Of a stretch of 64,000 bases of DNA, positions 6,538-58,511 are shown one piece after another; within the stretch, counting starts at the first letter, position 1; each line of letters starts with the position of its first letter. Source of the stretch: Sulfolobales archaeon (GTDB taxonomy: Archaea > Thermoproteota > Thermoprotei_A > Sulfolobales > NBVN01); contig JAWBTQ010000002.1 in the NCBI GenBank assembly GCA_038841535.1, positions 116,433 through 180,432 on the forward strand, read 5' to 3'. The position numbers and the translations under genes were made by a program. The notes under the pieces were generated by a model. That model was not told the DNA's origin. It was given only the letters and a program-made list of their open reading frames with translations, and ran no database searches.

Positions 6538-6547
6538 GTTACGTAAT
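6538..6547. promoter_or_regulatory. Palindromic operator GTTACGTAAT upstream of TATA (TTTATTA 6554)
   Basis: Same motif at the same position in four promoters. Confidence 0.7.
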
Positions 6548-6591
6548 CTTCCCTTTATTAGCAGCCTGGTTTTCGCGATTACGGACGTGGC

Positions 6592-8751
6592 ATGGCGCAC
6601 ACGCATTCTCGGACTAGGGTTTACCCCCTAGGTTTATGGTATGGAGTCGGCAAAGTTACACCAGTCTTCGATGCGTCTAAAATCCGCGATGACCTGAGGA
6701 AGGTCAAGGATCTGGGTGTAGGCTTTGTTAGACTTTGGGTAAACTGGAGAGATATCGAGCCGAGACCGAGTGCGTACGCATTTGGAGAGTTGAAGGAGGC
6801 TATGGACGAGGCCGAGGAGATCGGGCTTTCCGTAGTAATCCAAGTCTACTTAGAGTTTGGACCAGATTGGCTTCCGAAACTCTACCCCGATGCCGTTTTT
6901 ATTTCTGAGTCCGACCTAAAGCTGTATCACCAAGGTAGCCCAGGAGTTTGCCTAGACCACCCCTCTGTGAGAAGGCATGCTGAGAGGTTTCTTGTGGAGC
7001 TAGCTGGGTTCGCAAAGAAGTACAGCAGCCTATATGCTTGGGACGTATGGAGCGAACCACAGATAGTCCAATGGGTGTTCAGGCTTGGGTTTCCTAAGTC
7101 AGTCTACTGCTACTGTGAGCACAGCGTGAAGAGGTTTAGGGAATGGCTTAAGGAGGTCTACGTAAGTATCGACGCGCTAAACGCGGCATGGCATAGGTCC
7201 TTCAATTCGTTTGAGGAGGTTCAGCCACCTAGGTTTGTAGTCCTTCACTATGCTAAGGAGAACATTGACTGGGTAGAGTTTAACGTCTGGAAGCTCAAGG
7301 AGGATCTGCGTTGGAGGGTCGAGACTATCAAGAAAGTCGACCGGGAGCATCTCGTAGCAAGTCACGCAGCTACGTCGTCAGTTCTATTGAACCCCCTATT
7401 TGGGCACCCAGACGACTGGGAAATGTCTAAAGTCGTAGACGTTTGGGGTACGTCTCTATACCCTAAGCACGCTCACAGAGTCCCTGATCCAGCTGTAGAT
7501 AGCTTCATTCTAACCTCAGTAAGGTCTTCTGCTGACGCATGGGGAAAGAGCTTTTGGATAGGGGAACTCCAGGGAGGCCAAGGAGTTGGGGGCCTAAAGA
7601 TAGCGGACGTAGTACACCCAGAAGACATTAACGTATGGTTCTGGCAGTCCGTAGCCCACGGCTCTAAGGGAGCCTTCGTATACCACTCCTATCCAATGAT
7701 GTGGGGTTACGAGTCTTCGGGATACGGTCTACTAGACCCCGCTGGCAATTTAACGAATAGAGCAAGGGCTTTAGCGTCTATATCAAACATAGTGAGAGAG
7801 TACGGAGACATGCTTGCAGAAGCTAGACCTTTGAAAGCTAAGTGCGCACTATTATATAATAAGCACTCGTACAGACTGCTGTGGGTTCTTCAGGAGGAGT
7901 CGGCAGCAGCATTCTCTAGGTCTCTCCTGGGTGTGTACAGAGTTCTATACAAGCATAACGTTCCTGTAGATGTGGTCTCCATAGAGCAGTTCATGAACGA
8001 CCCGAGTAGCTATGTGCTACTGATGGCTCCCTTCTCGATAGCTGTTTCCAAAGAATTCTCTGGTGCTCTAGAGAGGTTTGTATCGAGCGGAGGTGTGCTT
8101 TTGGCGGATGCTAGATTTGGGTGGTTCAAGGAGGACGGCTGGATAGACGGAGAGATACCGTGCTACAACCTCTCAAGAGTTCTCGGTGCAAGAGAGAAGT
8201 CCTGCAGAAGCTTAACTGAGTCGAAGGCTGTTATGAGGGTCGTGAACGAGGTAGTCCCAGGGCTCAAGTGTGGCGACATCGTGGGGATGTGGCACTATGC
8301 TGAAACCATGGAGTTATTAAGTGAGAACACTATCCCTGTAGCTGAAGTAGGTAGTGCAGAAACAGCTCTAACGATTAACAATTACGATAGGGGTTTCGCA
8401 CTGTGGGTTGGCACATCCATAGGGTTAGCCTATGAGAACATGCGTGACCTAGGCATAGAGAAGCTTATTAAGGGAGTTGTGGAGCTTGCTGGAATACGTC
8501 CACCCGCAATAGTGGATCCAGTAGGTGCTCTCGAAGTTAGAGTTCTTACTGTGGGAGGAGGAGGCGAGAGACTAGTGGTAATGATAAACCAAGGCTTAGA
8601 GGAGGTGAGAGCGAAAATAGCTTTCCCGGAGGACAAGTGGTTAGAGAAAATAAGAGACATAATAACGGGCAAGTCCTACGTGGTTAGAGGAGGTGAGCTC
8701 GAGCTGTCTGTGCCCCCTAGAGGTGTAATCGTTGGGTACTCAAGGCAGTAG
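6592..8751 (+). CDS. GH42-like glycoside hydrolase with trimerisation domain
   Basis: WRDIEP, acid/base WDVWSEP, CYC, LNAAW, nucleophile WIGELQGG, class-I GATase-like C-terminal domain. Confidence 0.8.
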   Translation: MAHTHSRTRVYPLGLWYGVGKVTPVFDASKIRDDLRKVKDLGVGFVRLWVNWRDIEPRPSAYAFGELKEAMDEAEEIGLSVVIQVYLEFGPDWLPKLYPDAVFISESDLKLYHQGSPGVCLDHPSVRRHAERFLVELAGFAKKYSSLYAWDVWSEPQIVQWVFRLGFPKSVYCYCEHSVKRFREWLKEVYVSIDALNAAWHRSFNSFEEVQPPRFVVLHYAKENIDWVEFNVWKLKEDLRWRVETIKKVDREHLVASHAATSSVLLNPLFGHPDDWEMSKVVDVWGTSLYPKHAHRVPDPAVDSFILTSVRSSADAWGKSFWIGELQGGQGVGGLKIADVVHPEDINVWFWQSVAHGSKGAFVYHSYPMMWGYESSGYGLLDPAGNLTNRARALASISNIVREYGDMLAEARPLKAKCALLYNKHSYRLLWVLQEESAAAFSRSLLGVYRVLYKHNVPVDVVSIEQFMNDPSSYVLLMAPFSIAVSKEFSGALERFVSSGGVLLADARFGWFKEDGWIDGEIPCYNLSRVLGAREKSCRSLTESKAVMRVVNEVVPGLKCGDIVGMWHYAETMELLSENTIPVAEVGSAETALTINNYDRGFALWVGTSIGLAYENMRDLGIEKLIKGVVELAGIRPPAIVDPVGALEVRVLTVGGGGERLVVMINQGLEEVRAKIAFPEDKWLEKIRDIITGKSYVVRGGELELSVPPRGVIVGYSRQ

Positions 8752-9538
8752 TGGAGCGAAAATCCGCGACTTGCCCCAGGAGTGGTACGAAAGAGTGCTC
8801 GGACTGCTCGACTACATCGCTAAAACCCAGCGCAAAAATATTGAGAAAGCAGCCGAAATCGTCGCAGACTCTATATTCAAGGGACATGTGTGTTTTCTGT
8901 TTGGGTCAGGTCATGCTGCTATACCAGTGATGGAGATTTTTCCTAGATATGGGTCGATGGTTGGGTTCGTGCCCATAGTAGACCTCCCTCTAATATCCTT
9001 CCTTAGGCTAGTGGGGGATATGGGCTATCCGCAGTTTGATTGCATAGAGAACTCGCCTGAGTATGGGCGCAGAATAGTTGAGAACTACGAGATTCACAGA
9101 GACGACTGCGCCATTGTCTTCTCTCATTCTGGTACTACGCCCGTCACCTTAGAGGTAGCACTACAGATTAAGAGCAGGGGTTCTAAAGTGATTGGGATAA
9201 CCTCGGTAGCTCATTCGTTGAGGGCTAGACCACGACATCCGTCTGGATTAAAGCTATTCGAGGTTGCTGATGTGGTTATAGATACAGGAGTACCACCGGG
9301 AGATGTTTCCATAGAGGTATTTAGCGGGGGAAAGCCTATCAAAGTAGGACCTCTCTCCACAATAGCGTTCGTGTTCGTAGCTAATTTTGTGCTCTTAAGC
9401 ACCTATGAGCAATTGCTCAAAGCCGGTTACGACCCTATAACGCTGCCAGTTAGAGGTTTCGACTCAGATGCCGACATCCTCATGAGGAAAGCCCTCAGTA
9501 AGTACAGAGAGCTATACTCTAAACACATCTCTAAGTAG
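8732..9538 (+). CDS. SIS-domain sugar-phosphate isomerase-like protein (UPF0309-type)
   Basis: FGSGHA, FSHSG, GITS, KLFEVADVVIDTGVPPGD, GPLST. Confidence 0.8.
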   Translation: MGTQGSSGAKIRDLPQEWYERVLGLLDYIAKTQRKNIEKAAEIVADSIFKGHVCFLFGSGHAAIPVMEIFPRYGSMVGFVPIVDLPLISFLRLVGDMGYPQFDCIENSPEYGRRIVENYEIHRDDCAIVFSHSGTTPVTLEVALQIKSRGSKVIGITSVAHSLRARPRHPSGLKLFEVADVVIDTGVPPGDVSIEVFSGGKPIKVGPLSTIAFVFVANFVLLSTYEQLLKAGYDPITLPVRGFDSDADILMRKALSKYRELYSKHISK

Positions 9539-9546
9539 GGGATGGA

Positions 9547-10503
9547 ATGGTGTTGCGCAACGTCGTATTGTCAATAGACGTTGGTGGAACTAAGATTGCG
9601 TACGCGTTTATCGACTCCGGAGGAGGAGTTCATGATTACGGTATCGTAAAAACTAGGAGAGCTGGGGGAAGGCAGGTTATCAACCAGCTCAGAGAGATCG
9701 TTAGATCCTGTCGCTACAAGAAGGTTGTTGGCGTGGGGGTGAGCGTGCCAGGCATAGTTAGAAACGGATCGGTTACCTGGGCACCTAACATTAGGGAATG
9801 GAGGGACGTCCATTTAGCCGATCTGATAAGCAGGGATATCCCCGAGGGAGGCCTAATAGAGGTCGTAGACGATAGGACGGCTAGCGCTCTGGGTGAGATG
9901 TGGCAGGGGGCGGCAAAGAGTCTATCAAATTTCATAGTGCTAGTCATAGGGACGGGAGTCGGTGCCGGCGTAGTTATTGACGGTAGGCCTGTCCATGGCT
10001 CAGCTGGTGTTTCGGGAGCTGTAGGTTGGTGGTTACTATCGCGAAGTCTTCCACATCGGAGTACCCGGAGAGGTTTTCTCGAAGAAGAGATAGGGGGATT
10101 AGCTCTCGATAGAATCGCCAGAAGGTACTCTTCATCAAGAACCTCAACAGGCTCTCCACTTCGCGAGCTATGCGAATTCGTCGATTCGACTTGCTTGTTT
10201 AGAGCTTACGACCTTGGGCACGATCTCGCAAAAAACACCCTAGAAAGGAAAGCAGTATTACTCGGGATCCTCATAGCTAACTTACTGAGCCTGCTTAACC
10301 CCGAGGCCGTTATACTAAGTGGTAGCGTCGGAGTTGAGCTAGGTAAAAGGTTTATGCCGCTCATCAGGAGAGTAGTTGAGGCAGTAGCGCAACCGTACGC
10401 CACCAAGAGCTACCGCTTAGAGGTATCAAGCCTAGGTCACTTGTCCTGCTTATACGGCTCTGCCTACTTCGTATTGAAAAGAATGGGGAGCATAGGTAAG
10501 TAA
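9547..10503 (+). CDS. ROK family sugar kinase (no HTH), probably amino-sugar kinase
   Basis: IDVGGTK, GVSVPG, DDRTASALGE, IGTGVGAG, LNPEAVILSG. Confidence 0.85.
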   Translation: MVLRNVVLSIDVGGTKIAYAFIDSGGGVHDYGIVKTRRAGGRQVINQLREIVRSCRYKKVVGVGVSVPGIVRNGSVTWAPNIREWRDVHLADLISRDIPEGGLIEVVDDRTASALGEMWQGAAKSLSNFIVLVIGTGVGAGVVIDGRPVHGSAGVSGAVGWWLLSRSLPHRSTRRGFLEEEIGGLALDRIARRYSSSRTSTGSPLRELCEFVDSTCLFRAYDLGHDLAKNTLERKAVLLGILIANLLSLLNPEAVILSGSVGVELGKRFMPLIRRVVEAVAQPYATKSYRLEVSSLGHLSCLYGSAYFVLKRMGSIGK

Positions 10504-10546
10504 TAAGACCACTTTTTTGTTCTGTTAGTTTCTAACTCGTGAGACT

Positions 10547-11761
10547 ATGCTGCTTGGAGTAGTTGAGGGGTTCTATGGGCCCGCCTGGGACTGGGTTGAG
10601 AGGATTAACATTATGGAGTTTCTGAGTAGGGTAGGTCTCAATGCCTACATATACGCACCTAAGTGGGATCCTCGTCATAGGGATTGGTGGAGGATTCCAT
10701 ACGAACCTGTCTTTGCTGATAGACTAAGCATGCTATTAGACTCGGCTTCTAGGTACGGAATCAGAGTTGTTTTCGCCCTAAGCCCGGGCTTAGACATGGA
10801 CTACTCGTCAGAGCACGATGTTAGATTGCTAGTAAAGAAGTTCTCTTGGGTTATGGAGCTGGGGGTTGAAGATTTAGCCGTGTTTTTAGACGATATCCCG
10901 CCGGTTCTTAGAGGAAAAGGGTTCAAGACTCTAGCAGAAGCTCAGTCTTCCTTAGTGAACAAGTTGCTTAGGGAGCTGAGACCTAAGTCGCTGGTGTTCT
11001 GCCCTACCTATTACCACAGTCTGCGGGAGGACTACATGAGAGAGATAGGCGATCTCGTTGATCCCGAGGTATACATAGTTTGGACTGGTATGTGGGTAGC
11101 CTCACACAAAATAGACGTAGGGGACTTAGAATCCGTGGCCAAGCTCTTAAAGAGAAAGCCGTTCATATGGGATAACTACCCAGTTAACGACTACTTCACC
11201 GTTTACGGAATTACGAGGCTACACCTAGGGCCCCTAAAGAACAGACCTAAAGAGTTCACCAAATATATCTCCGGCTACGCATCTAACCCCATGAATCAGT
11301 ATGAAGCATCTAAGATACCTCTATACACTATCGCAGAAGCCTTACTAAGTACGTCATACGACCCCGAAAAGAGTTTATCGGACGCTATAGACAGCATACT
11401 CAATAAGAACTCTAGGTACTGGTTTAAGAGGTTTGTGGAGTTTAACCGAGCTAACTTTATGGACTTAACGGAACGTACTATAACTAGAGAAAATGCTGAC
11501 GAGGTGATCGAGCTAGTCAGAGAACTTCGTGAATCTATAGGAAACAAGAAGTTGGTTAGAGAAGTTGACTCAGTGTTAAGCAAAATGGAGTCCATAGCCA
11601 GGTACTCTAAAAACGAGGTATCCTATCTAAGCTGGCGAGTTCAGACTGCAGGTGAGTACAGTCCCCCAATAACAGCTGAGAGAATGTTGAAGGAGGTGTT
11701 CGGAGTAGTAGCCCGACTCACTCCTTGGTACAGTAAGGCCTACGTAAAGCCCGAGGTGTAG
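10547..11761 (+). CDS. GH84 beta-N-acetylglucosaminidase (O-GlcNAcase family)
   Basis: GVVEGFYG, YIYAPKWDP.HR, ALSPG, catalytic DD (FLDDI), FCPTYY, WTG, WDNYPVNDY, NPMNQ. Confidence 0.92.
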   Translation: MLLGVVEGFYGPAWDWVERINIMEFLSRVGLNAYIYAPKWDPRHRDWWRIPYEPVFADRLSMLLDSASRYGIRVVFALSPGLDMDYSSEHDVRLLVKKFSWVMELGVEDLAVFLDDIPPVLRGKGFKTLAEAQSSLVNKLLRELRPKSLVFCPTYYHSLREDYMREIGDLVDPEVYIVWTGMWVASHKIDVGDLESVAKLLKRKPFIWDNYPVNDYFTVYGITRLHLGPLKNRPKEFTKYISGYASNPMNQYEASKIPLYTIAEALLSTSYDPEKSLSDAIDSILNKNSRYWFKRFVEFNRANFMDLTERTITRENADEVIELVRELRESIGNKKLVREVDSVLSKMESIARYSKNEVSYLSWRVQTAGEYSPPITAERMLKEVFGVVARLTPWYSKAYVKPEV

Positions 11762-11764
11762 AAA

Positions 11765-13048
11765 GTGATAATTAGGGCGTATAGGAGAGGTGATGAAGAG
11801 GAAGTCGTTGAGCTACTCAAGATGTGCTTTGATGACTTCAATAGGTGGGGTGTGTCAGCGGAGGACTGGCTTTCGTATGAGGAAGGAGACTACGGCTTTA
11901 AGATAGATAACGCTCTTGTTGCTGAAGTCAGTGGTAGATTGGTAGGACACCTTCACTTAGTGATACGGAATGCGTACATAGGTGAAGGTTCCTTTGATAT
12001 CTGCGGAATAGCTAATGTTTCAACTCACCCGGACTTCCGAGGTAGGGGTATAGCTACCGCCCTCGTGAAGAGAGCTATAGAGGTGTGTAGAGAAATGGGT
12101 TTACCTGTAGTTTCACTACTTACCGGCTATGGAGGTGAGGGGTATCGCGTATATAGGTCCGTGGGTTTTTCGAACACGGCTTTTCTGAGAGCATACGTAG
12201 GTGCTCGAGATAGTGTCGAAAAGTTTTTAGAGAGTTATGGGAAGATCAGGCTAGAAGTTGAAGAAATAGGCTACGGGAACATCGATGAAGTAGCTAAGCT
12301 TCACGATACGTTACGGAGGAAAGTAAATCTTGTCATATCGCGTCCCAGAGACTACTGGGTCAGCAAGGTACTGAAGAGATTCTTTTTCTATAGCTTCTTT
12401 TACGATCGCTCCGAGGAAGCTATAAAGCTACTCTTCAGAGACTCCTCCGGTCCGGTGGGTTATTCTCTGGCTTTTAGTGGGCAACGCGCCTCGAGGAACT
12501 ACTGGCAGAAAGATGCAGGAGTAGTACTTGAAGCTGTAGCTATCAACGAGAAATACTTGAAGAGCGTAATCTCCGAGACCCTAAGGCGACTACTCGATAG
12601 TGGGGCGAAGTTGTTCAGGCTCTACGTGCCACCATTATACAGGCCTATATTACGCTATAGCTTTGAGGAGTTCAAGGGGGGTTTACTAATGGACTACGTA
12701 ATCGACTTAAAGAAGCTTCTGAGCAGTATGAGGGATGAACTCTCGAGGAGAGCAGCTTCCGCAGAGCTTAGGGGCCCTATGGACATCAGCATAAGGAGTC
12801 CATATGGATGCGCAAATGTTAATGTAGTTGATTCTAATGTGGAGATAAGTAGTTCCTGTAAGTTCGAGAATGAAGTGGAGTTCACCAGAGATGGCATCGT
12901 TAAAACTATCTATGGAGTAAGCTCCATAGGCAAACTAGTAAATAAGGACCAGGTAATGAGAATAAACCTTAGCTCACAAGCTTTTAAAGCAGTAAATGCC
13001 CTCTTTCCGGCTAGACCAATATACATCCCAAGGATGGACCAGTGGTAG
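11765..13048 (+). CDS. Tandem-GNAT N-acetyltransferase (Eis/GlmA-like architecture)
   Basis: GIANVSTHPDFRGRGIA, YRSVGF; second degenerate GNAT domain and SCP2-like tail. Confidence 0.8.
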   Translation: MIIRAYRRGDEEEVVELLKMCFDDFNRWGVSAEDWLSYEEGDYGFKIDNALVAEVSGRLVGHLHLVIRNAYIGEGSFDICGIANVSTHPDFRGRGIATALVKRAIEVCREMGLPVVSLLTGYGGEGYRVYRSVGFSNTAFLRAYVGARDSVEKFLESYGKIRLEVEEIGYGNIDEVAKLHDTLRRKVNLVISRPRDYWVSKVLKRFFFYSFFYDRSEEAIKLLFRDSSGPVGYSLAFSGQRASRNYWQKDAGVVLEAVAINEKYLKSVISETLRRLLDSGAKLFRLYVPPLYRPILRYSFEEFKGGLLMDYVIDLKKLLSSMRDELSRRAASAELRGPMDISIRSPYGCANVNVVDSNVEISSSCKFENEVEFTRDGIVKTIYGVSSIGKLVNKDQVMRINLSSQAFKAVNALFPARPIYIPRMDQW

Positions 13049-13401
13049 TCGGAGAATCTGCGAGTCCACACGACTTCGAGCCTCTTAGGGAAGTACGAAA
13101 CGGAGATCTCGTAATTTTAAAGCCTCTTCAATATTCTATTCATAAAAGCAGAGCTATGTCGAGGTTCCCCAAAGAGATGTTAAAACTAATGTGCTAAGCG
13201 TTATTACGAGAAGACTAAAGTAGAGTAGAACGTGTGGATCATTACGCTCATATTGGGACCTACAGTACTCAGTTACTAGTGGAGGGTTAATCAGCAAATA
13301 GAATCTTAGAGTATGGACAGCACTTATAGCCACACCATGTACGGCAGCAAGTCACAGATTTTTCCAGTGTCCTGGGTCCTCTCTTAGTCTTGGGAGCTCT
13401 G

Positions 13402-13411
13402 GTTACGTAAC
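13402..13411. promoter_or_regulatory. Perfect palindrome GTTACGTAAC upstream of TATA (TTTAAAT 13419)
   Basis: Shared operator motif. Confidence 0.72.
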
Positions 13412-13447
13412 TCTGTGGTTTAAATGATTCTAGCGATCAACTCACGG

Positions 13448-15478
13448 GTGCTAACTACGCCTCTACAGAAGTGGGTGATTTATGTTATAGTTGTAGTAGT
13501 CATAGCTGCAGTTGCTGTCGGTATAGCAGCCCAGTTACTCCTTCCGCCACCAGCCGTTCAACCAACTCCCACACCTACCCCTACCGCAATTACCCCCGCA
13601 ACAACACCGACTCCCACAACACCTCCAACAGTGACACCTACGACTACTCCTTTACCTACAACACCGACTCCCACACCGACTCCTGGGGAGAAGGTAGTAT
13701 ACTTGTACGGTAGTTGGCCGCCCCCTGAGAACTATATTACTAACCCCCTGGTAGGTACCATAGGGATGCTTCACTACTATACCCACATGCCACTAGTGTT
13801 TCTAATACCCGCTGATAGAGCACCATTACCTGGGTTACTCGGTGAGTACCCTAAGCTCATTTCGCTCTTAGCTGATGCCTGGGTATTCAAAGAGTATCCA
13901 GGTTCGAATTTAACTATAGCGGAGGTAAAGCTTAAGAAAACTGGTTGGAGTGATGGTAATCCGCTAACAGCTGAGGACGTTTTTATTAGTATAGTGTACT
14001 ACGGATGCTTCTACAACTCATTTCCCGGCTACTATGAGGTAATTAATGAAACAGCTATAAGGAGGTACTGGAACGCTACGGGCATTAGATTCGAAACACT
14101 CACCTCGTGGATGTGGTCTTGGTACGGGATTTGGGCATCAAGAGAATACTACAAAGTGGAGCCATTGTGGCCGATCTGTATAGAGCAGTACAGGCTACTA
14201 AAGGAGCGCTACTACCTAACAACAGTGGGGAAGCCTGTACCTAAGGAATTAACGGATAGACTTACTCTGCTCAATAAGTGGTTCAGGGGGAACCTAACGG
14301 AGATAGCTAAGAAGGTCCCAGCATACCTAGCTAATGGACCCTTCTATCCAGCTAAGATCACAGAGTCCCACATTATTTGGGAGAAGAACCCGTACTTCTG
14401 GAACACTAAAGGTATGGCAATAGATAGATGGGTGATGCTAAGCACTCCTGAGACTGCAGTCATAATAGAGAACATCGGTCGCGGAGCCGTTACGTGGTCG
14501 ACGCTAACATCAATAGTGCCAGACATCGTTGACGCACTTAAAGCTATAAACAGAGACCTATTGGTGTACCCACTAACTCACTATCGCATGGTCGGCATAC
14601 TCTTCAATTTCCAGAGATACCCGATGAACGATACACACTTCCGTAGAGCGATCGCTTACCTTGTAAATAAAGACGCCATTTTCCAAACTCTTCCCTTCTA
14701 CGCTAAGGAGACCATACTAAACATAGGGCTACCGGAGGAGTTCTTGTGGAAATGGATCTCAAGCGACGACTTAAAGTACTTCACAAGGTACACCTACGAC
14801 CCCAAGAAGGCGGAAGAAGAACTGCTCGCCGGAGGCTTCAGAAAAGACCCTAGAACTGGTAAGTGGCTTCTACCGAACGGTACTCCCATATCCATTACCA
14901 TAACGATTACCTCTGATCCCATGTATGTAATACCAGCTGAAGCTATTGCCGGGATGCTTAACAGCTTCGGAATCACGACGCAGATAAGTGTTGTTCCATC
15001 AGCTGTTTGGACGACACTCGTTCGGACCTACGCTACTACCTACGCCGTAGAGAGAAATTACGACATAACCATCTGGATATCTAGCTTGATGTACGCTACT
15101 GCTCACCCGTACTGGACATGGTCCCACATACTCATGCTCGGATGGGGTGCTGGAGGAGCAATAGCTTTCCCGAACTGGTGGAACATACAGCATCCGTGGA
15201 AGAGCTGCACTAACGACGAAAACATATCTAGGTTGTTCACTATACTCTACAACAACCCTGGTACAGACGTCGAGAAGTGCGCCATTAAGGCGTTCGCATG
15301 GGTCGTCAACGAATATGTGCCTGTCTTACATTTGTACGAATATGGTGTCTGGGTATTCATGAACAGTAAGGACATCAAGGGATGGCCCCCGGAGGAAGAC
15401 CCGGTTTGGAGCGTAAGATTAATGGACGCTGGCTACTATCGAGCTCTCCTGCTACTCTCGATATATTACCTGCGTTAA
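13448..15478 (+). CDS. ABC transporter substrate-binding protein, family 5 (Dpp/Opp-type, likely oligosaccharide or muropeptide)
   Basis: N-terminal TM, Pro/Thr linker, WSDGNPLTAEDV, NGPF, FRRAIAYLVNK, YDPKKAEE; GTG 13448 preferred because ATG 13424 overlaps the TATA box. Confidence 0.85.
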   Translation: MLTTPLQKWVIYVIVVVVIAAVAVGIAAQLLLPPPAVQPTPTPTPTAITPATTPTPTTPPTVTPTTTPLPTTPTPTPTPGEKVVYLYGSWPPPENYITNPLVGTIGMLHYYTHMPLVFLIPADRAPLPGLLGEYPKLISLLADAWVFKEYPGSNLTIAEVKLKKTGWSDGNPLTAEDVFISIVYYGCFYNSFPGYYEVINETAIRRYWNATGIRFETLTSWMWSWYGIWASREYYKVEPLWPICIEQYRLLKERYYLTTVGKPVPKELTDRLTLLNKWFRGNLTEIAKKVPAYLANGPFYPAKITESHIIWEKNPYFWNTKGMAIDRWVMLSTPETAVIIENIGRGAVTWSTLTSIVPDIVDALKAINRDLLVYPLTHYRMVGILFNFQRYPMNDTHFRRAIAYLVNKDAIFQTLPFYAKETILNIGLPEEFLWKWISSDDLKYFTRYTYDPKKAEEELLAGGFRKDPRTGKWLLPNGTPISITITITSDPMYVIPAEAIAGMLNSFGITTQISVVPSAVWTTLVRTYATTYAVERNYDITIWISSLMYATAHPYWTWSHILMLGWGAGGAIAFPNWWNIQHPWKSCTNDENISRLFTILYNNPGTDVEKCAIKAFAWVVNEYVPVLHLYEYGVWVFMNSKDIKGWPPEEDPVWSVRLMDAGYYRALLLLSIYYLR

Positions 15479-15501
15479 GATCAGTCTACAGGCTGGTGTA
15501 A

Positions 15502-16530
15502 ATGGAGTTAACGGGAGTTTTTCCGTTCATTAAGTTACTCTCGAAGAGGGTTTTATATGCGATTTTAACAATTATGGTAGCCGTCTCGGTAACTTTCGTG
15601 GCTATAAGGTCTATGCCTGGAGATGTGCTTTACACGCTGGCAGTATCGCTAGCAGAAGAGCTGAGGATCTCCGTAGAGGAGGCCAAGAAGATAGTGTTCT
15701 ACATATACTATGGGATTGACGTCGAAGAACCGATCTACCTACAGTACCTTAAGTATGTCATTGGGTTACTGCAGGGGAACCTAGGGTACTCGACATACTT
15801 CAAAAGACCCGTTACTTACGTTGTAGCCAGGGCGCTAGGCTGGACAGCGTTTACTCTTTCCGTGGGGATCTCTCTGTCTTTCGCTATTGGGATACTGATA
15901 GGGATGCTGGCAGGTTTTAAGCGCGGAACTAAGTTTGACGCCATAGTATCTCTGACCTCGACAGTACTGTCGGCTATACCGGGATACGTAGTAGCGCTAC
16001 TACTGTACATCATGCTATCTGCGCGACTAGGACTCCTACCAGCAAGAGGAGCCTACTCACCGCACGTAGAACCGGGACTAAACCTAGCGTTTATGATCGA
16101 CGTACTCTACCACGCAGCTCTCCCAGTACTCACATACGTAGTGATAACTTTCTCTGGCTGGACGCTACTCATAAGATCGAACGTGGCGAAGATACTGGAG
16201 GAGGACTTTCTCAAGTACGCTGAGGCGCGGGGAATTAGCAGGAGGAGAATAGTGACTACCTACATAGGTAGAAACTCCATACTGCCAATAGTGCCTCTCC
16301 TGGCTATAAGAGTGGGGAGCATGATTGGCGGCTCTACCCTCATAGAAACGATCTTCGCGTATCCCGGTATGGGGTATTACCTATCTCTAGCTCTTAGCAT
16401 TAGAGATTACGGTCTTCTCCAGGGCATATACTTTATGATGATAGTCGCAACTATAGTTGCGGTAATAGTGGTCGAGTTCCTCACCCCGTTAATAGATCCA
16501 AGAGTTCGACGCGAGGTAGTAGCAACATGA
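15502..16530 (+). CDS. ABC permease (DppB/OppB-type)
   Basis: MPGD, GNLGYS, EAA loop AEARG, ETIFAYPGMG, IDPRVR. Confidence 0.92.
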   Translation: MELTGVFPFIKLLSKRVLYAILTIMVAVSVTFVAIRSMPGDVLYTLAVSLAEELRISVEEAKKIVFYIYYGIDVEEPIYLQYLKYVIGLLQGNLGYSTYFKRPVTYVVARALGWTAFTLSVGISLSFAIGILIGMLAGFKRGTKFDAIVSLTSTVLSAIPGYVVALLLYIMLSARLGLLPARGAYSPHVEPGLNLAFMIDVLYHAALPVLTYVVITFSGWTLLIRSNVAKILEEDFLKYAEARGISRRRIVTTYIGRNSILPIVPLLAIRVGSMIGGSTLIETIFAYPGMGYYLSLALSIRDYGLLQGIYFMMIVATIVAVIVVEFLTPLIDPRVRREVVAT

Positions 16531-17414
16531 CTTCCTACAGGAGTTCTAAGTCGAGACTTAAGCTCATATACTTAGACTTCGTGAGACCAGTAATCCTAAG
16601 CGGTAGAGGAGTCCTAGGTATCGCTATCATAGTCTCCATGATCTTTATGGCTACATTAGGGCCCGAGCTCATACCTCTAGATACGGGTGTTAAGCCGCAG
16701 ATGAAGTGGTGTCAGCCCTCTCTTGAGCATCCGCTAGGGTGCGACTACCTCGGCCGCGACCTGTTCTCACTGGTAGTTCACGGTTCGAGAGAGGTCTTCC
16801 TTATACCCTTCTGTGCTACTTTGATTGGTGTGGTCGTAGGGCTATCTATAGGTCTGTTAGCAGGTTATATTGGCGGGTTGGCTAGAAGAGCTCTAACCTC
16901 AGTAACTGACACGTGGTTAACAATACCGTCGTTTCCAGTAATATTTATATTAGCCTACGCTTTACCTAAGTCTCCGGTCTCCATAATACTTCTACTAACT
17001 CTCTTTAGCTGGCCCGGGCTAGCTAGAGCGGTAGCCGCTGAAGTATCCTCATTGAAGCGCAGAGACTACATCGAGGCGTGCGTTAACCTAGGCCTTGGGA
17101 GGGGCTACATACTGTTCAGAGAGATAGGACCTCACATACTCCCATTTGTAGCAATCAACTTCGCCTCGGTTTTCGTCGCAAACATGACGTCTCTAATAGG
17201 CATAGTCCTCCTCGGGGTAGCCCCACTGAACCCAACTAATTGGGGCTACTTACTAAACCAGATGATATTTACTTACAAGGGACTGCTCCTAGCTAATGCA
17301 TCAGTAGTGATAGTGTTGATGATACTCATGTTGGTTTTTATAAAGCTGGGTGTAGTGTTCTTTGCTCAATCCCTCGAAGAGGTCTTTAACCCAAGGTTGA
17401 GGAGGTATGAGTGA
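16527..17414 (+). CDS. ABC permease (DppC/OppC-type)
   Basis: HPLGCDYLGRD, WPGLARAV, FNPRLR. Confidence 0.92.
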   Translation: MTSYRSSKSRLKLIYLDFVRPVILSGRGVLGIAIIVSMIFMATLGPELIPLDTGVKPQMKWCQPSLEHPLGCDYLGRDLFSLVVHGSREVFLIPFCATLIGVVVGLSIGLLAGYIGGLARRALTSVTDTWLTIPSFPVIFILAYALPKSPVSIILLLTLFSWPGLARAVAAEVSSLKRRDYIEACVNLGLGRGYILFREIGPHILPFVAINFASVFVANMTSLIGIVLLGVAPLNPTNWGYLLNQMIFTYKGLLLANASVVIVLMILMLVFIKLGVVFFAQSLEEVFNPRLRRYE

Positions 17415-18414: not shown

Positions 18415-18416
18415 AG

Positions 18417-19451: not shown

Positions 19452-19456
19452 AGCAG

Positions 19457-19657
19457 ATGAGAGCACACCCAATTATTCTAGTCGACCTTCTAGCATTAGC
19501 CGTAGTCACATTAGTACTTTCCGCTGTAGCTCTAGCAATACTACAGCCATCTGATGAAGCATATCTGCCGGCACTCTCAGCCTTATTTATTTCTTTAGTC
19601 CTCGTCTTTGTAGCCCTAGTCGGGTTTAGGAGAGCTATTAAAGTAGAGAAAACGTAG
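19457..19657 (+). CDS. Small two-TM membrane protein
   Basis: Two hydrophobic stretches; directly follows the ABC operon. Confidence 0.6.
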   Translation: MRAHPIILVDLLALAVVTLVLSAVALAILQPSDEAYLPALSALFISLVLVFVALVGFRRAIKVEKT

Positions 19658-19661
19658 AGTC

Positions 19662-19671
19662 GTTACGTAAT
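19662..19671. promoter_or_regulatory. Palindromic operator GTTACGTAAT upstream of TATA (TTTAAAC 19680)
   Basis: Shared operator motif. Confidence 0.7.
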
Positions 19672-19703
19672 CCTTTCCCTTTAAACTTCTAACCCCAAAA
19701 AGT

Positions 19704-22373: not shown

Positions 22374-22441
22374 AGCTTAAACTTAATACAGTACAACGAG
22401 TTCTATTTCGGTTATTTGCTGCGGATTTAAGTGGCCTAATC

Positions 22442-22680
22442 GAGTTGGGGTTCAGCTCTGATATAGGTTTGTATTGGTTGATTTTATTGCCTCATCTCTT
22501 ACTCCCGCATCCTGCTCGGGTCCTCATCGGGCTCTGGGGCGTCCGGGGAATCCTAGGCCGTATCACATCTCGGTTTATCCTCGGGAGAGCCCGCACTTCA
22601 TCTACGTAGCTCTCGACCACTCATCGAGTAACCTTCGCACATCGATCCACGCCGAGACACTCATAAACGTCTTTGTTGCA
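22442..22680 (-). mobile_element. Decayed IS200/IS605 tnpB 3' end / omegaRNA-like remnant
   Basis: Minus strand ..ATGAAGTGCGGG..GATTCCCCGGACGCCCCAGAGCCCGATGAGGACCCGAGCAGGATGCGGGAG..GATGAGGC resembles crenarchaeal tnpB ends as recalled; no intact ORF. Confidence 0.5.
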
Positions 22681-54195: not shown

Positions 54196-55143
54196 GTGAA
54201 GTCCGCAGTAAGAAAAATAGTAAGAGTAGGGAAGAAGTCGTACGCTGTTGTTATACCTAAAAAGTGGCTAAACTTCCTAAGGGCACATCCCGGGGAACCC
54301 GCCTATATAGTTATGAACGACGACGGTACTATTACCATAGCTCCCCTGAAGACTACTGAAAGTGCTCCAGCTAGGGTGACTGCTCACACTGCTCTCTCTA
54401 CTCTATCTGCTGACAGCAGGTCTATCACTAAAGTTGTTTTAGCTCTGTATTCGGCAGGCCTCAGTAGTCTAATTGTTGAAGCTGGGATACGCTGGGACGC
54501 TGTTTCCATACCGCAAGAGCTGGCGAGAGTCGAGCAATTAGAGGGCAGAGCACTCATAAGCTTCAGGGAACTTAGAGCTGATCCCCGCGAGGTCCTCGAG
54601 AACATGGTCCGCAAGGTTAGGGATGCATTTAGGCTGTTTTACGAAAACCTGGAGAGGTTTTCCCCCGAAATATGGGAAGAAATCCATAGACTAGAGGGCG
54701 AGCTCGATGTAATGGTGCACTTAGTCTTGAGGCTAGCCATAAGGAAGTTAGTAGCGGAAACCCTGAGGAGGGGGTTGGAGAGCGATACCCTAGTTCGGAG
54801 TATACTTGACGTATCGGTAGCCAAGCTTCTCGAAGATCTCTCTGACTGCGTAGATAGGTCTGTACACCGCATTAAGGAGTACTCTACCATCTCAAGGGAT
54901 TACAGAAACTTGTTCATTAAGGTAAGTGATTTAAGTGATGATGTGATGATGTGCTATCTACACCGCTGCTCAATTGATGATGTGATATTAAACCTTAATA
55001 AAGCGTCGAAGCTCCGGGAAGAACTAAAGGAGCTCATGTCAGTATCGGCGTCTCCACTTCAAACACTGCTATCAGAAATTGAGGTAGCACTAACCTTAGT
55101 AGAGGACTTGCTAGAGGCCACCCTCGTCCTAGCTTACGGGTGA
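54196..55143 (+). CDS. AbrB-domain + PhoU-like regulator
   Basis: RKIVRVGKKSYAVVIPKKW N-terminus; helical PhoU-like repeat (E..LD, LEDLSD). Confidence 0.75.
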   Translation: MKSAVRKIVRVGKKSYAVVIPKKWLNFLRAHPGEPAYIVMNDDGTITIAPLKTTESAPARVTAHTALSTLSADSRSITKVVLALYSAGLSSLIVEAGIRWDAVSIPQELARVEQLEGRALISFRELRADPREVLENMVRKVRDAFRLFYENLERFSPEIWEEIHRLEGELDVMVHLVLRLAIRKLVAETLRRGLESDTLVRSILDVSVAKLLEDLSDCVDRSVHRIKEYSTISRDYRNLFIKVSDLSDDVMMCYLHRCSIDDVILNLNKASKLREELKELMSVSASPLQTLLSEIEVALTLVEDLLEATLVLAYG

Positions 55144-55150
55144 TGTCGTC

Positions 55151-56341
55151 TTGCTCAAATACGAAGGCTTGGTCTTGAGGGAGGCCAGAGTCGTTACTCC
55201 TCACAGGGTTATACAGAACGGGTACGTAGCAATAGAGTCCGGGAGAGTAGTAGATGTAGGTGATGAACCTTATAGAGGTGGAGAAGGCCTAGACGAGCTG
55301 TACCTTAAAGGCATGGCCGTTGGTCCTGGGTTTATCGATACACATATTCACGGGGCTTTTGGTATAGACTTAAGTGCGGCGACACCTAGCGAGATCGTTA
55401 GACTATCTGAAGAATTAACTAAGTATGGTGTAACCTCGTTTGTTCCTACAGCGGTTACTCTCCCCCATGAAGAGCTCCTTAGGTTCTGTAGAAATGTCTT
55501 GGCAGCATCTAGACAAGCTAGGGGAGCTAGAATACTGGGGATACACCTAGAGGGTCCGTTCCTAAACCCTAGGAGGGCTGGCGCTCAAAACCCCGCATAC
55601 ATGAGACCTGCTAAAGTGGCTGAGCTTAAAGAACTTGCTAGCGTTTCGAGTGGGCTACTGAAGTCTATAACCGTCGCACCAGAGGTGGAGGGAGTTACCG
55701 AGCTCATACGGAACGCTACGATGATGGGCGTTGTAGTGCAAGTAGGACATACAGACGCAACATACTCCGAGACCATCGAGGCAGTAGAGTTGGGGGCGAC
55801 TAAAGCCACACACCTATACAACGCTATGAGCGGCATACACCACAGAACTCCGGGAGCCGCTCTTGCCCTACTTCAGGCTAATAGTGTCTACCTCGAGCTC
55901 ATTGTTGACTTTGTTCATGTCGCACCTGAAGTCGTTAAGTTCACTATAGACTACGCTAGTTACCGTAGAGTAGTGCTTATTTCTGACTCTATCTCAGCTA
56001 CCGGTCTTCCAGAAGGTTCGTACAAGCTAGGTGGTCTAGACGTAGAAGTCAGAAAAGGTGTTGCTAGAGTAGCTGGTAAGGACGTATTAGCTGGGAGCAC
56101 TCTAACCATGAAGCAAGCCTTCTACAACGTAATCTCCTTAGGTTCCCGGCTTGAGGAGGCTTTCTACATGGCTTCAACAGCTCCAGCAGAGTCTTTGGGG
56201 GTGTCCTTAGATTTAGGAAGTATAGTACCGGGGCGTAGAGCTGACTTAGTAGTTCTAGGAAGAGACGGAAGTGTCGTGGCGACATTTATAGGTGGGAAAC
56301 TCGTTTACTCTAGAGAAGACTTCAGTGAACTAATGAGCTGA
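55151..56341 (+). CDS. nagA: N-acetylglucosamine-6-phosphate deacetylase
   Basis: PGFIDTHIHG, GIHLEGPF, GHTDA, THLYNAM, ISDS, LAGSTL. Confidence 0.93.
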   Translation: MLKYEGLVLREARVVTPHRVIQNGYVAIESGRVVDVGDEPYRGGEGLDELYLKGMAVGPGFIDTHIHGAFGIDLSAATPSEIVRLSEELTKYGVTSFVPTAVTLPHEELLRFCRNVLAASRQARGARILGIHLEGPFLNPRRAGAQNPAYMRPAKVAELKELASVSSGLLKSITVAPEVEGVTELIRNATMMGVVVQVGHTDATYSETIEAVELGATKATHLYNAMSGIHHRTPGAALALLQANSVYLELIVDFVHVAPEVVKFTIDYASYRRVVLISDSISATGLPEGSYKLGGLDVEVRKGVARVAGKDVLAGSTLTMKQAFYNVISLGSRLEEAFYMASTAPAESLGVSLDLGSIVPGRRADLVVLGRDGSVVATFIGGKLVYSREDFSELMS

Positions 56342-56371: not shown

Positions 56372-56379
56372 GTACGTAA
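56372..56379. promoter_or_regulatory. Degenerate operator GTACGTAA upstream of the serine hydrolase promoter
   Basis: One mismatch to TTACGTAA; AT-rich TATA-like sequence about 7 nt downstream. Confidence 0.4.
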
Positions 56380-56407: not shown

Positions 56408-57553
56408 ATGAACTACGGGGTGTTAGTAGTGCTCGAGAATTGCGACACAAAAGAGTTAAACATCAAGTTATCAAGACTAGAAAAAGCTAGAGCTGTAGCT
56501 GAATCTTACGTTGGGACGGCGTACCCAGGATACGACCTCCTAATATTAAAGGATGGCTGTTTGGCTTCAAGGAGCTTTTCCGGTCACGCGGAGATAGTGC
56601 CTAAAGTTAGACCCCTCAGAGAGGACTCCATGTTCGACGTAGCTTCTCTAACTAAGGTTTTAGTCACCTCATTAGTCTACTCTAGGCTTGTCGAAGAGGG
56701 TCTATTAAGTCTCAGGCAGAAGGTAGTAGAGCTTGCTCCAGAGTTTGGGAAGACACCGGCCGGTAGTAACTACGTTAAGGAAAGAGTGGCGTTGTGGATG
56801 CTGCTCTCTCACACTTCTGGTCTACCGGCTTGGTTACCACTATACAAGACGTGTAAAACTCGTGATGAAGTGTTTGAAGTCGCACTAAAGTCTTTTCCCT
56901 CCTACGAGCCCGGAAGGGACGTACTCTACAGCGACATCAATTACATAGTCCTCACGTACTTAGCTGAGAAAGTAACTGGTGAAAGAATTGACAAGCTCTT
57001 CGATAAACTAATAGCTAAGCCGCTAAACCTCAAGAGGTCGGCGTTCAATCCTTTGGAGAAGGGATATAGTAGGGATGATGTGGTAGCGACGGAGGTGGTG
57101 GAGTGGCGGGGGGGTACTGTGGTTGGGGTAGTCCACGACGAAAACGCTCTAGCCATGGGTGGTATCTCAGGACACGCAGGACTGTTTACGACCACGGTCG
57201 AGACAGCTGTAATCGTTAGAGAGATAATTTGCGCGTATAGAAGAGATTGTGACTCTCTGGTATCAAGGCCCACCGCTACGTCAATGCTCAGTCCTTGGGC
57301 TTGCGGAGAGGGATGTTACGGTTTGGGTTGGCAGGTAAGCGAGCCGAGTAAGGGTTTGAGCCCTCTAACTGACTATAGGTACACCTTGATAGCTGGACAT
57401 ACGGGTTTCACGGGTACCTCGATCCTTATGGTACCTCAAGAGTCTCTTGCTGTAGTATTCTATACTAATAGAGTTCATCCAACTAGAGCTAATGAGCAGA
57501 TCAGGCATGTCAGAGTTTTACTGCATAACGTAGTTCTCTCATCTATTAACTAA
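56408..57553 (+). CDS. Beta-lactamase-fold serine hydrolase, AmiE-like
   Basis: FDVASLTK (SxxK), LLSHTSGL, YSD, VHDENA..MGGISGHAGLF, GHTGFTGT, TNRVHP. Confidence 0.85.
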   Translation: MNYGVLVVLENCDTKELNIKLSRLEKARAVAESYVGTAYPGYDLLILKDGCLASRSFSGHAEIVPKVRPLREDSMFDVASLTKVLVTSLVYSRLVEEGLLSLRQKVVELAPEFGKTPAGSNYVKERVALWMLLSHTSGLPAWLPLYKTCKTRDEVFEVALKSFPSYEPGRDVLYSDINYIVLTYLAEKVTGERIDKLFDKLIAKPLNLKRSAFNPLEKGYSRDDVVATEVVEWRGGTVVGVVHDENALAMGGISGHAGLFTTTVETAVIVREIICAYRRDCDSLVSRPTATSMLSPWACGEGCYGLGWQVSEPSKGLSPLTDYRYTLIAGHTGFTGTSILMVPQESLAVVFYTNRVHPTRANEQIRHVRVLLHNVVLSSIN

Positions 57554-57708
57554 CTTATTCATAACTTGGGAAGGGTTTTCGCGTAAGCTAACTCCTTCTG
57601 AGTTCTGCTTAGTAGGTATTCGTAGCTCAAAAATCTCGGAGAAGCAGTAGGCACTAAGGCACGCAGTATTGTTACTAAGGTTGAACGGTTTGACTGCGTT
57701 AAGCAGTA

Positions 57709-57718
57709 ATTACGTAAC
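57709..57718. promoter_or_regulatory. Palindromic operator ATTACGTAAC upstream of TATA-like TTTATG/CTTAAA
   Basis: Shared operator motif. Confidence 0.65.
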
Positions 57719-57767
57719 ACCGAGTTCTTTATGCTTAAACTCACTATTATTTGGAGAGGTATGCGGT

Positions 57768-58511
57768 ATGGGTACGTCTATCACAATATCTTGCTTAGCT
57801 GAACTCGTTTCTGGCATTATCTCGCGTATAGCCTCTGAGGAAAGAGAAGGTCTCGAGAGAGCTTCAGAGGAGGTGGCTAAAGCATTAACGTTAGGTGGTT
57901 TTGAGTACTTATTCGGTACGGGTCACTCGATGTTAGTTGCCCTAGAGGCGTTCTTTAGAGCGGGAGGATTAGTCAGAGCTTTTCCTATATTGGACCTCTC
58001 TCTCATGGGAATTCCGTCTGCCACTAGAGCGAGCCACCTTGAAAGGCTTCCAGGGTACTCTAAGGCTATAGTTGAGTCCATCGACATAGTCCCGAACTCT
58101 GTAGCAATAGTAGTGAGCAACTCGGGAAAGAACTCCGGACCCGTCGAAATGGCTCTCGAGCTAAGGTCGAGGGGGGTCAAGGTCATAGGCATAACGTCGC
58201 TTGAGTACTCTAAGAAGCTACGACCGGAAAACCAATACGGGAAGAAGCTGTACGAAGTAGTCGATATAGTAATCGACAACAAAGTCCCAGAGGGAGATGC
58301 TGCTTACACAGTGTCAGAGTCCGTTAGGGTGTTCCCCATATCTACGATAGTAAACGCCTTCATAGTTCACGCAGTAAACGCGAGAGCTGTAGAGCTCGTT
58401 AGAGATCGAGGCCATGAGCCAGAGGTTTGGACTAGCGTAAACGTTCCAGGAGGTAAAGAAAGAAACAGAGCTTACCTAAGGAAGTATGCGAACATCCTCA
58501 AGTACATTTAG
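57768..58511 (+). CDS. SIS-domain protein (UPF0309-type), paralog of 8732-9538
   Basis: FGTGHS, RAGGL, LERLPGY, SNSGKN, DNKVPEGDA, SVNVPGG; ATG 57768 lies downstream of the promoter. Confidence 0.85.
   Translation: MGTSITISCLAELVSGIISRIASEEREGLERASEEVAKALTLGGFEYLFGTGHSMLVALEAFFRAGGLVRAFPILDLSLMGIPSATRASHLERLPGYSKAIVESIDIVPNSVAIVVSNSGKNSGPVEMALELRSRGVKVIGITSLEYSKKLRPENQYGKKLYEVVDIVIDNKVPEGDAAYTVSESVRVFPISTIVNAFIVHAVNARAVELVRDRGHEPEVWTSVNVPGGKERNRAYLRKYANILKYI

Follow-up and report, generated by a model that had tools for sequence, protein, structure and literature searches.

A candidate system for peptidoglycan foraging in a hot-spring archaeon of the order Sulfolobales

The closest described systems to the one considered here are the bacterial pathways of N-acetylmuramic acid (MurNAc) and muropeptide recycling, in which N-acetylglucosamine (GlcNAc) is taken off, the peptide is removed, MurNAc is phosphorylated, its lactyl ether is cleaved, and the product is deacetylated. 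The reference gene sets are murQ-murR-murP-amiE-nagZ-ybbC(namZ) in B. subtilis and those for NagZ, AmpD, AnmK, MurQ, NagK, and NagA in E. coli (PMC5061867). Exported murein hydrolases have also been described in archaea that have no murein themselves. Strock et al. (PLoS Biol 2025, PMC12352652), who treat them as killing enzymes, raise the question of scavenging and note an enrichment of OppBCDF-MppA homologues. The DNA analyzed here, termed the window, comprises 64,000 nucleotides (nt) at positions 116433-180432 of contig C2 from a Sulfolobales archaeon whose genome is labeled G000. It carries two groups of genes, locus A and locus B, whose products may take part in a route with the same order of steps as the bacterial one.

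The window encodes, with a probability of roughly three in four, the greater part of a system by which a hot-spring archaeon of the order Sulfolobales (of Desulfurococcales type) catabolizes bacterial peptidoglycan. The activities of all the proteins are deduced from family membership and from catalytic motifs that have been kept. A preliminary description of this DNA had proposed a near-complete wall-scavenging route encoded by two loci. The route is strengthened by AnmK, NamZ, LysA, and a BadF-type kinase, and the two loci do not form a self-contained system, because key steps are encoded elsewhere. The feature is thus real, and its first interpretation was largely right but incomplete; what is added includes a specific candidate for a new etherase.

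In the proposed route, a membrane-anchored surface enzyme would strip stem peptides from MurNAc outside the cell by means of its Amidase_2 domain, and the denuded glycan would then be cut by DigH-type GHL10 and spore-cortex-type GH18 domains. The fragments would be imported by a family-5 binding protein and an Opp-type ATP-binding cassette (ABC) transporter. In the cytoplasm, GH84 would remove GlcNAc as a stand-in for NagZ, NamZ would take off terminal MurNAc, and a hydrolase of the PBP4B clade would remove the peptide from MurNAc or anhydro-MurNAc, standing in for AmiE or AmpD. Anhydro-MurNAc would be converted to MurNAc 6-phosphate (MurNAc-6P) by AnmK, and MurNAc and GlcNAc would be phosphorylated by a ROK kinase, a BadF-type kinase, or both. 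A SIS_2 protein of the NagS family, most likely the one termed SISb, would remove D-lactate in place of MurQ, which would yield GlcNAc 6-phosphate (GlcNAc-6P) for deacetylation by NagA. Candidates for the conversion of the resulting glucosamine 6-phosphate (GlcN-6P) to fructose 6-phosphate are SISb, a second SIS_2 protein (SISa), and a second GlmS-like protein, and released meso-diaminopimelate would be turned into lysine by LysA. One operator, TTACGTAA, at the edge of the B recognition element (BRE) and the TATA box, would be common to the GH42 operon, the transporter operon, the surface-enzyme gene, and SISb, and it is probably read by an AbrB/PhoU-like protein.

The surface enzyme and its neighbors

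The surface enzyme is a protein of 889 residues (19704-22373, + strand), in which Pfam and NCBIfam profile searches, by which all domain calls for window proteins are defined, place GH18 at residues 140-352, Amidase_2 at 394-536 (E 5.7e-30), and GHL10 at 584-816. Its N-terminus consists of a membrane helix followed by a Thr/Ser-rich linker, which makes a location on the cell surface plausible. Each of the three domains has relatives that act on murein. The Amidase_2 domain (PF01510) reaches 104.8 bits against a cut-off of 26 and is 43-51% identical to many secreted bacterial amidases. Aligned to AmpDh2, it keeps the three zinc ligands of the family (the His residues of VVHVTE and IIGHDQ and the Asp of HHTDPG), and these are conserved in the archaeal orthologues. 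The Lys that AmpDh2 has two residues before the Asp ligand is replaced by His.

The GHL10 domain (PF02638) scores 65 bits against a cut-off of 27.9 and is 25% identical to E. coli DigH over 267 residues (BLASTP, E 2e-8); DigH of E. coli K-12 itself reaches 453 bits on this profile. DigH is known to act specifically on denuded glycans, from which amidases have already removed the peptides (PMC12288456). Among solved structures, those closest to the GH18 domain include B. subtilis YdhD, YaaH, and a cortical-lytic enzyme, which places the domain in the spore-cortex subfamily, not among the classical chitinases. Its D-x-E motif, the catalytic motif at the end of strand 4 in GH18 enzymes, is present as NIDFE in orthologues P0001-P0008. 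The motif is degenerate in two divergent three-domain orthologues, P0009 (NIVLE) and P0010 (G017:C24; NIDLK). Amidase_2 and GHL10 are still conserved in these two proteins, and their GH18 domain may have turned into a binding module.

The three-domain protein forms nine clusters at 90% identity, and those with a taxon name are archaeal. In other organisms, a second, Cys-type Amidase_2 has been fused independently to the same GHL10 subfamily. This fusion of two unrelated Amidase_2 types to one subfamily suggests that the amidase and GHL10 activities work together. For homologues with only the Amidase_2 and GHL10 domains, on other metagenome contigs, no catabolic neighbors were found; they adjoin M28-FtsX and DUF6785 genes. 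A recurring cluster around Amidase_2+GHL10 or GHL10-only genes was observed on unrelated metagenome contigs (L106:1093-11443, L117:635-10638, and L110:241-13186). Its members are an M28-peptidase/FtsX-permease fusion of ~1490 residues, a protein of ~630 residues without a Pfam family, and DUF6785/DUF6784 membrane proteins.

Locus A is a single run of genes on the + strand, in the order GH42-like glycosidase, SISa, ROK kinase, GH84, GNAT, solute-binding protein (SBP), two permeases, two ATPases, and surface enzyme. All of the domains first named there were found again at the same coordinates by Pfam and NCBIfam, the second GNAT domain apart. The importer consists of a family-5 SBP (SBP_bac_5; 13424-15478, + strand) with a membrane anchor and a Thr/Pro linker, whose true start is probably downstream of 13424, two ABC permeases (15502-17414, + strand), and two ABC ATPases with oligo_HPY tails (17407-19451, + strand). 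GH84, a predicted cytoplasmic beta-N-acetylglucosaminidase (10547-11761, + strand; NAGidase, 1.4e-82), is encoded in other genomes in clusters with NagA, the beta-lactamase-fold gene of locus B, SISb, and AnmK. The ROK sugar kinase (9547-10503, + strand; 5e-38) would be a MurNAc and/or GlcNAc kinase, and a second ROK gene is found elsewhere in G000.

The GH42-like glycosidase (6592-8751, + strand; GH42 4.5e-43, plus GH42M) is predicted to be cytoplasmic. Both catalytic Glu candidates are kept: the nucleophile, in alignment with the one in PDB 3tts, and the probable acid/base residue, within WSEP. SISa (8732-9538, + strand) belongs to the SIS_2 / NagS family (NCBIfam PRK02947). ESM Atlas look-ups of these two proteins returned only their own families. 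The GNAT acetyltransferase (427 residues; 11765-13048, + strand) had been read as a tandem protein analogous to GlmA. One N-terminal GNAT domain, at residues 3-136, stands; the second domain and the analogy were not confirmed, as there is no Pfam match in the last 277 residues (151-427) at E<=5. This protein has weak PDB matches to GNAT proteins of 388-396 residues, and its AlphaFold2 model, built from a four-sequence alignment, has a mean pLDDT (the predictor's own confidence score) of 41 and is too poor for use. In metatranscriptome run X13, contigs 90-99% alike cover 22 of the 30 bins of window positions 6400-22500, the SBP gene included; these contigs indicate presence in an RNA library only, since levels are not readable from them, DNA carry-over is possible, and uncovered bins are uninformative.

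Locus B comprises four genes on the + strand, three of which (NagA, the beta-lactamase-fold protein, and SISb) had been named before and were borne out by Pfam and NCBIfam. The first, at 54196-55143, is newly recognized and encodes an AbrB/MazE-type DNA-binding domain with a weak PhoU-like tail. It is followed by NagA, the GlcNAc-6P deacetylase (55151-56341; TIGR00221 316.4 bits against a cut-off of 225.65), by a beta-lactamase-fold serine hydrolase of the PBP4B clade, predicted to be cytoplasmic (56408-57553), and by SISb, a second protein of the SIS_2 / NagS family (57768-58511). The likely start of SISb is the ATG at 57768, not the TTG at 57669.

The hydrolase and E. coli YfeW/PBP4B share 29% identity across an alignment of 387 positions (E 4e-50), and the archaeal protein has the motifs SLTK (SxxK), YSD, and HTG. 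B. subtilis AmiE, to which MurNAc-L-Ala amidase activity is ascribed, is presumably a member of this clade. These relationships suggest that the archaeal protein is a MurNAc-L-Ala amidase or a muropeptide peptidase. In E. coli, yfeW is part of the operon murQ-murP-yfeW (PMC5061867).

Genes elsewhere in the genome, distribution, and a shared operator

Further genes for MurNAc were found when proteins of archaeal MurQ clusters were used as queries against G000. NamZ lies on contig C27 (PF07075 187.8 bits and PF20732 157.8 bits, both over cut-off) and is 41% identical to NamZ of a MurQ cluster. AnmK (PF03702 242 and 69 bits, over cut-off and full length; 44% identical to the query) is split over the junction of contigs C28 and C6, with pieces at L156:14-946 (C28) and L157:11620-11970 (C6); the ends of these contigs overlap by 127 nt, so that the two are neighbors. 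The AnmK family also includes levoglucosan kinases, and the substrate of this protein is therefore taken from context. A BadF-type sugar kinase is encoded on contig C2. MurQ, GH3, and PIG-L queries found no match in G000. Both AnmK and NamZ are present in all three congeners, which argues against the contigs that carry them being contaminants, and in G151 NamZ adjoins the GH42 operon on the locus-A contig.

Directly after NamZ on C27, on the same strand (L155:1666-4082), is LysA, a diaminopimelate decarboxylase (TIGR01048 413.7 bits against 297.9). LysA also flanks the GH3-MurK-MurQ-NamZ cluster of G352, from another family (L144:6331-7563), and no DapF was detected in G000, a genome of 84% completeness. 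Its position in both genomes and the missing DapF suggest that LysA is a salvage enzyme for wall-derived meso-diaminopimelate. A pyroglutamyl peptidase gene adjoins the NamZ-LysA pair.

In a broader sample of 401 Thermoproteota, MurQ exceeds its cut-off in 37 genomes, all outside the order of the window. Sixteen of the 37 loci were fetched (L139-L154), and 48 open reading frames (ORFs) of five loci were annotated with Pfam. Orthologues of the beta-lactamase-fold gene lie 1-5 kb from MurQ in 6/16 loci; these six are 35-40% identical to the window protein and 33-37% identical to E. coli PBP4B. In the annotated loci, a BadF-type kinase is next to MurQ in all five, four hold the beta-lactamase-fold orthologue and have NamZ beside MurQ, two hold GH3, one holds AnmK, and two hold GNAT and a PIG-L deacetylase. 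These clusters mirror murQ-amiE-nagZ-ybbC of B. subtilis and murQ-murP-yfeW of E. coli (PMC5061867). No paper describing archaeal MurQ clusters of Thermoproteota was found.

Within the order of the window, 201 genomes were compared. AnmK is present in 20 of them, and the beta-lactamase-fold gene (17/201), NamZ (12/201), and strong GH18 or surface-enzyme matches (9/201, three of them full length) all fall within this AnmK set. SISb-like genes occur in 42/201 genomes, including 19 of the 20 with AnmK; the AnmK genome with no SISb-like match, G115, is 71% complete. The AnmK-bearing genomes are related (families f1, f4, f6, and f12), so that these counts are not independent events. The co-occurrence of the two loci, which the preliminary description predicted, holds in that all nine genomes with a strong GH18 or surface-enzyme match also carry the beta-lactamase-fold gene and AnmK. 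Moreover, in 14/20 genomes the beta-lactamase-fold gene, SISb, or both are found no more than 5 kb from AnmK, as in G108 (NagA-AnmK-beta-lactamase-fold, with SISb-GH84) and in G049, G059, and G078 (SISb-AnmK).

Locus A is a mosaic of an older GH84-GNAT pair and an accessory module (surface enzyme, importer, GH42-like protein, SISa, and ROK) that is absent from congener G181. At the syntenic site, G181 has only thymidine kinase-GH84-GNAT-helix-turn-helix genes, without GH42-SISa-ROK on one side and without the importer and surface enzyme on the other, and it keeps AnmK, NamZ, NagA, the beta-lactamase-fold gene, and SISb. A conserved arrangement, GH42-SISa-ROK-GNAT-SBP-ABC-surface enzyme, recurs in G151, in G017, and on metagenome contigs. 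SISa orthologues occur only in G000, G151, and G017, the genomes with a full-length surface enzyme, and GH42-like orthologues of >50% identity are confined to the same three. In congener G193 (C107, L075), AbrB-NagA-beta-lactamase-fold-SISb adjoins GH84 and thymidine kinase, so that in this genome the two loci of the window form a single locus, which has no accessory module. The core set could serve the use of soluble anhydro-muropeptides shed by growing bacteria, and the accessory module could allow some members to attack intact walls, which would yield non-anhydro MurNAc that needs a kinase (ROK), together with products for the GH42-like protein and SISa.

Five copies of the palindrome TTACGTAA are present in the window, where 1.1 would be expected, and no shuffle out of 100 had as many. 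Four of them are followed by a TATA-like box 5-13 nt downstream. The copy at 6539-6546 precedes TTTATT by 7 nt and the GH42-like start by 46 nt; at 13403-13410, TTTAAA follows after 7 nt and then the SBP gene; at 19663-19670, TTTAAA follows after 10 nt and then the surface-enzyme gene; and the copy at 57710-57717 precedes SISb. The fifth copy (59016-59023), which falls within a family-B polymerase-like ORF of the opposite strand, in its 3′ portion, is probably due to chance. It had been claimed that both loci carry the same promoter palindrome. This is so for three promoters of locus A and for SISb, and does not extend to the promoter of the AbrB-NagA-beta-lactamase-fold operon, which has no copy; a half site alone is found, at 56373.

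TTACGTAA is conserved at the SBP promoter in 4/5 lineages compared, before the surface-enzyme gene in 6/7, and before SISb or a GH84-SISb operon in G151, G181, G017, G049, G059, G078, and G175; at the GH42-like promoter it is not conserved in G151 or in the G017-like locus. Because of this conservation at promoters in other lineages, it is regarded as a genuine, if putative, operator. In the 1.56 Mb of G000 there are 57 sites, from which a strict promoter filter kept the three of locus A and two at contig ends; the SISb site was missed by the TATA pattern of the filter, and one contig-end site falls inside the AnmK coding region. A gene of the geranylgeranyl-reductase family is preceded by a further site and was dropped as a member of the system. 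The position of the operator at the BRE/TATA edge fits activation and repression alike. The AbrB/PhoU-like gene adjoins NagA in G000, G181, and G193, adjoins the surface enzyme in G151 and metagenome loci, and in G017 and G006 has AnmK on one side and the beta-lactamase-fold gene on the other. Since the gene travels with the system, its product is probably the reader of the operator and is the best candidate for this role.

At 1787-4141 of the window, a 2,4-diaminopentanoate-dehydrogenase-like gene (Ord, 198 bits, under cut-off) is followed by a class-III aminotransferase/aminomutase-like gene, and the pair may serve ornithine-type amino-acid fermentation. Two M20 peptidases (46964-48220 and 61755-63152) could act on wall-derived peptides and have no tie to the operator; one of them is near the cut-off for succinyl-diaminopimelate desuccinylase-type deacylases (367.6 bits against 374).

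The fate of MurNAc 6-phosphate and rival readings

The first interpretation named two SIS proteins and ended in a deamination step. Both proteins are SIS_2 members and fall in the NagS/UPF0309 family (NF002805, PRK02947; SISa 219 bits, SISb 248 bits, cut-off 135). For SISb, a role as etherase fits the context at least as well as one as deaminase. SISb matches the NagS structure (PDB 9eol) with 134 bits. NagS (SCO4393 of Streptomyces) is a GlcNAc-6P dehydratase related to MurQ, in which H53, R64, E94, and D179 are essential and S91 and N228 contribute (PMC12680351). All six of these residues are kept in SISb; SISa keeps the four essential ones and has S91 changed to D and N228 to G. A literature search on "UPF0309" returned no paper, and NagS is, to our knowledge, the only characterized member of the family.

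AnmK makes MurNAc-6P, and we know of no catabolic outlet for this compound other than MurQ. In five near-complete (97-99%) AnmK-bearing genomes, as in G000, MurQ (NF003915) was not found over its cut-off, the best match in the five being 39.7 bits against 168. Elimination of the 3-O-lactyl group from MurNAc-6P, followed by hydration, would be the same chemistry as the dehydration step of NagS. Because AnmK is present without MurQ, SISb lies beside AnmK in several genomes, and the NagS residues are kept, SISb is the best candidate for a MurNAc-6P etherase, with about an even chance of being one. The wider proposal is that in part of the order a NagS-family SIS_2 protein has taken over from MurQ, within an analogous and largely non-orthologous foraging pathway that has an AbrB/PhoU-type regulator at TTACGTAA. 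This is put forward tentatively, at slightly less than even odds; if true, bacterial walls and released anhydro-muropeptides are a direct food source for hot-spring archaea.

Several observations weigh against these readings. G000 is a metagenome-assembled genome (MAG) of 40 contigs and 84% completeness, in which AnmK and NamZ lie outside both loci and without the operator, and the AbrB-NagA-beta-lactamase-fold promoter has no copy of it. In G017, the GH18 catalytic Glu is changed to Lys, and GH18, GH84, NagA, and Opp-type importers would suit chitin or N-glycans equally. The beta-lactamase-fold protein scores 178.5 bits on the NCBIfam PBP4B profile (NF002968), under the cut-off of 385; this is still by far its best family (the next scores 58.7 bits). 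Among 14 named genomes used as a control, the profile exceeds its cut-off in only one. The sole characterized amidase of this clade known to us is B. subtilis AmiE. Of the genomes with SISb-like genes, 23 have no AnmK, and there these genes are often neighbors of NagA, which fits a deaminase as well as an etherase. In BLASTP, neither SISa nor SISb shows significant similarity to E. coli MurQ outside the SIS core. In addition, bacterial NagS homologues of ~30% identity are reported to have neither NagS activity nor a known function, so that residue conservation does not settle the activity of SISb, and MurNAc-6P goes unmentioned in the NagS paper (PMC12680351).

The strongest alternative, which has a smaller but still substantial chance of being correct, is that SISb replaces NagB as a GlcN-6P deaminase and that either SISa or another enzyme acts on MurNAc-6P, or none does. 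NagB (PF01182) was not found in G000 or in any of the five near-complete relatives, NagA-SISb adjacency is widespread and extends to genomes without AnmK, and SIS proteins resembling the GlmS isomerase domain perform GlcN-6P deamination. However, 17 of the 20 AnmK genomes have no SISa and would be left without an outlet for MurNAc-6P, and it is SISb, not a GlmS-type SIS protein, that adjoins AnmK in G049, G059, G078, and G094. All six NagS residues, which act on an N-acetylated substrate, are moreover kept in SISb. Finally, there are two GlmS-like genes per genome (L061/L065 and L062/L064 in G000), and one of their products might be the catabolic GlcN-6P deaminase; in G012, a GlmS-like ORF of 612 residues (G012:C43:50804-51010) lies ~2 kb from an AnmK-beta-lactamase-fold-SISb-NagA cluster.

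It is unlikely that the surface enzyme serves chiefly to lyse neighboring bacteria, as a weapon, with its tie to the catabolic genes secondary. Archaeal peptidoglycan hydrolases can kill bacteria (PMC12352652), and the enzyme is predicted to be exposed on the cell surface and is encoded by an accessory gene that varies within the genus. However, it is tethered to the membrane and not released, it has its operator in common with the importer and with cytoplasmic sugar enzymes, which it always adjoins, and it and GH42-SISa-ROK vary together as a single block. In any case, an enzyme that kills could also serve feeding.

A regulon for the use of GlcNAc and chitin, or of the cell's own N-glycans, in which the murein-like domains are incidental, is less likely still. 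GH18 would then be a chitinase or endo-glycosidase, GH84 a chitobiase, ROK a GlcNAc kinase, NagA a deacetylase, and the SIS_2 proteins deaminases. An archaeal chitin pathway exists in Thermococcus, and GH18, GH84, NagA, and family-5 ABC importers make up the customary equipment for chitin use; in family f10, NagA and SISb are paired where both AnmK and the beta-lactamase-fold gene are absent, and with no NagB found, some deaminase is needed. This explanation nevertheless leaves unaccounted for an intact Amidase_2 fused to a DigH-type GHL10, the presence of AnmK and NamZ, LysA next to NamZ, and a PBP4B-clade protein that elsewhere is found in MurQ clusters, and the GH18 domain is nearest to cortex-lytic enzymes, not to processive chitinases.

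A misassembled bacterial contig, a possibility raised at the outset, is rejected, because the 180-kb contig also encodes EF-2, an XPD-type helicase, and family-B polymerases between loci A and B and is collinear with a contig of congener G181 at 78-97% nucleotide identity. The nearest named relatives of G000 are MAGs of a "Sulfolobales archaeon" and a "Desulfurococcaceae archaeon", and the public runs that hold the window stretch are hot-spring metagenomes.

Comparison with described systems

With the bacterial recycling pathways, the archaeal system has true homologues in common, namely AnmK, NamZ, NagA, and the PBP4B-clade protein; its LysA, Amidase_2, GH18, and GHL10 are likewise classed as true members of their families. 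It differs in that the host has no murein, which makes the process foraging rather than recycling, in that GH84 takes the place of NagZ (GH3) and an ABC importer that of the phosphotransferase system, and in that an AbrB/PhoU-like regulator is found instead of MurR. Neither MurQ nor NagB was found, and a NagS-family SIS_2 protein stands in their place. Since MurQ was looked for and fell short of its cut-off, the system is not counted among those based on MurQ. A full-text literature search, with subscription journals outside its scope, did not turn up any account of a pathway for MurNAc catabolism in archaea.

The MurK-MurQ-NamZ-NagZ-AnmK clusters of other Thermoproteota have the same PBP4B-clade protein, NamZ, and AnmK, and presumably the same substrate. 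They keep MurQ, a BadF-type MurK, and GH3, whereas the order of the window has SIS_2, ROK, and GH84, with MurQ not found, and some of its members add the fused surface hydrolase. NagS belongs to the same family as SISb, and true NagS is reported in Streptomycetaceae only (PMC12680351). The archaeal context, with AnmK, NagA, and the PBP4B-like gene, points instead to a lactyl-ether lyase or a deaminase. Lactyl-ether cleavage would thus be a concrete candidate function for a large uncharacterized part of the NagS/UPF0309 family.

The surface enzyme follows the logic of the septal amidases and DigH (YddW) of E. coli, where an amidase acts before a GHL10 glycosidase that works on peptide-free strands (PMC12288456). 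The archaeal protein fuses both activities together with GH18, is anchored in the membrane, is 25% identical to DigH, and has the Amidase_2 fold as opposed to Amidase_3. As a module that is present or absent within a genus, it and its neighbors could link genotype to niche in hot springs. With the archaeal killing hydrolases it shares the trait of an exported murein hydrolase in an organism without murein. The main text of that 2025 study does not contain Thermoprot*, Crenarchaeota, recycl*, or catabol*, and it leaves open whether archaeal wall-cutting enzymes serve to kill or to eat (PMC12352652). In the window, by contrast, the hydrolase is linked by position and by a putative operator to an importer and a cytoplasmic MurNAc route. 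A wall-cutting enzyme wired in this way to an importer and to a route for MurNAc and diaminopimelate makes the hypothesis that such archaea eat bacterial walls directly testable.

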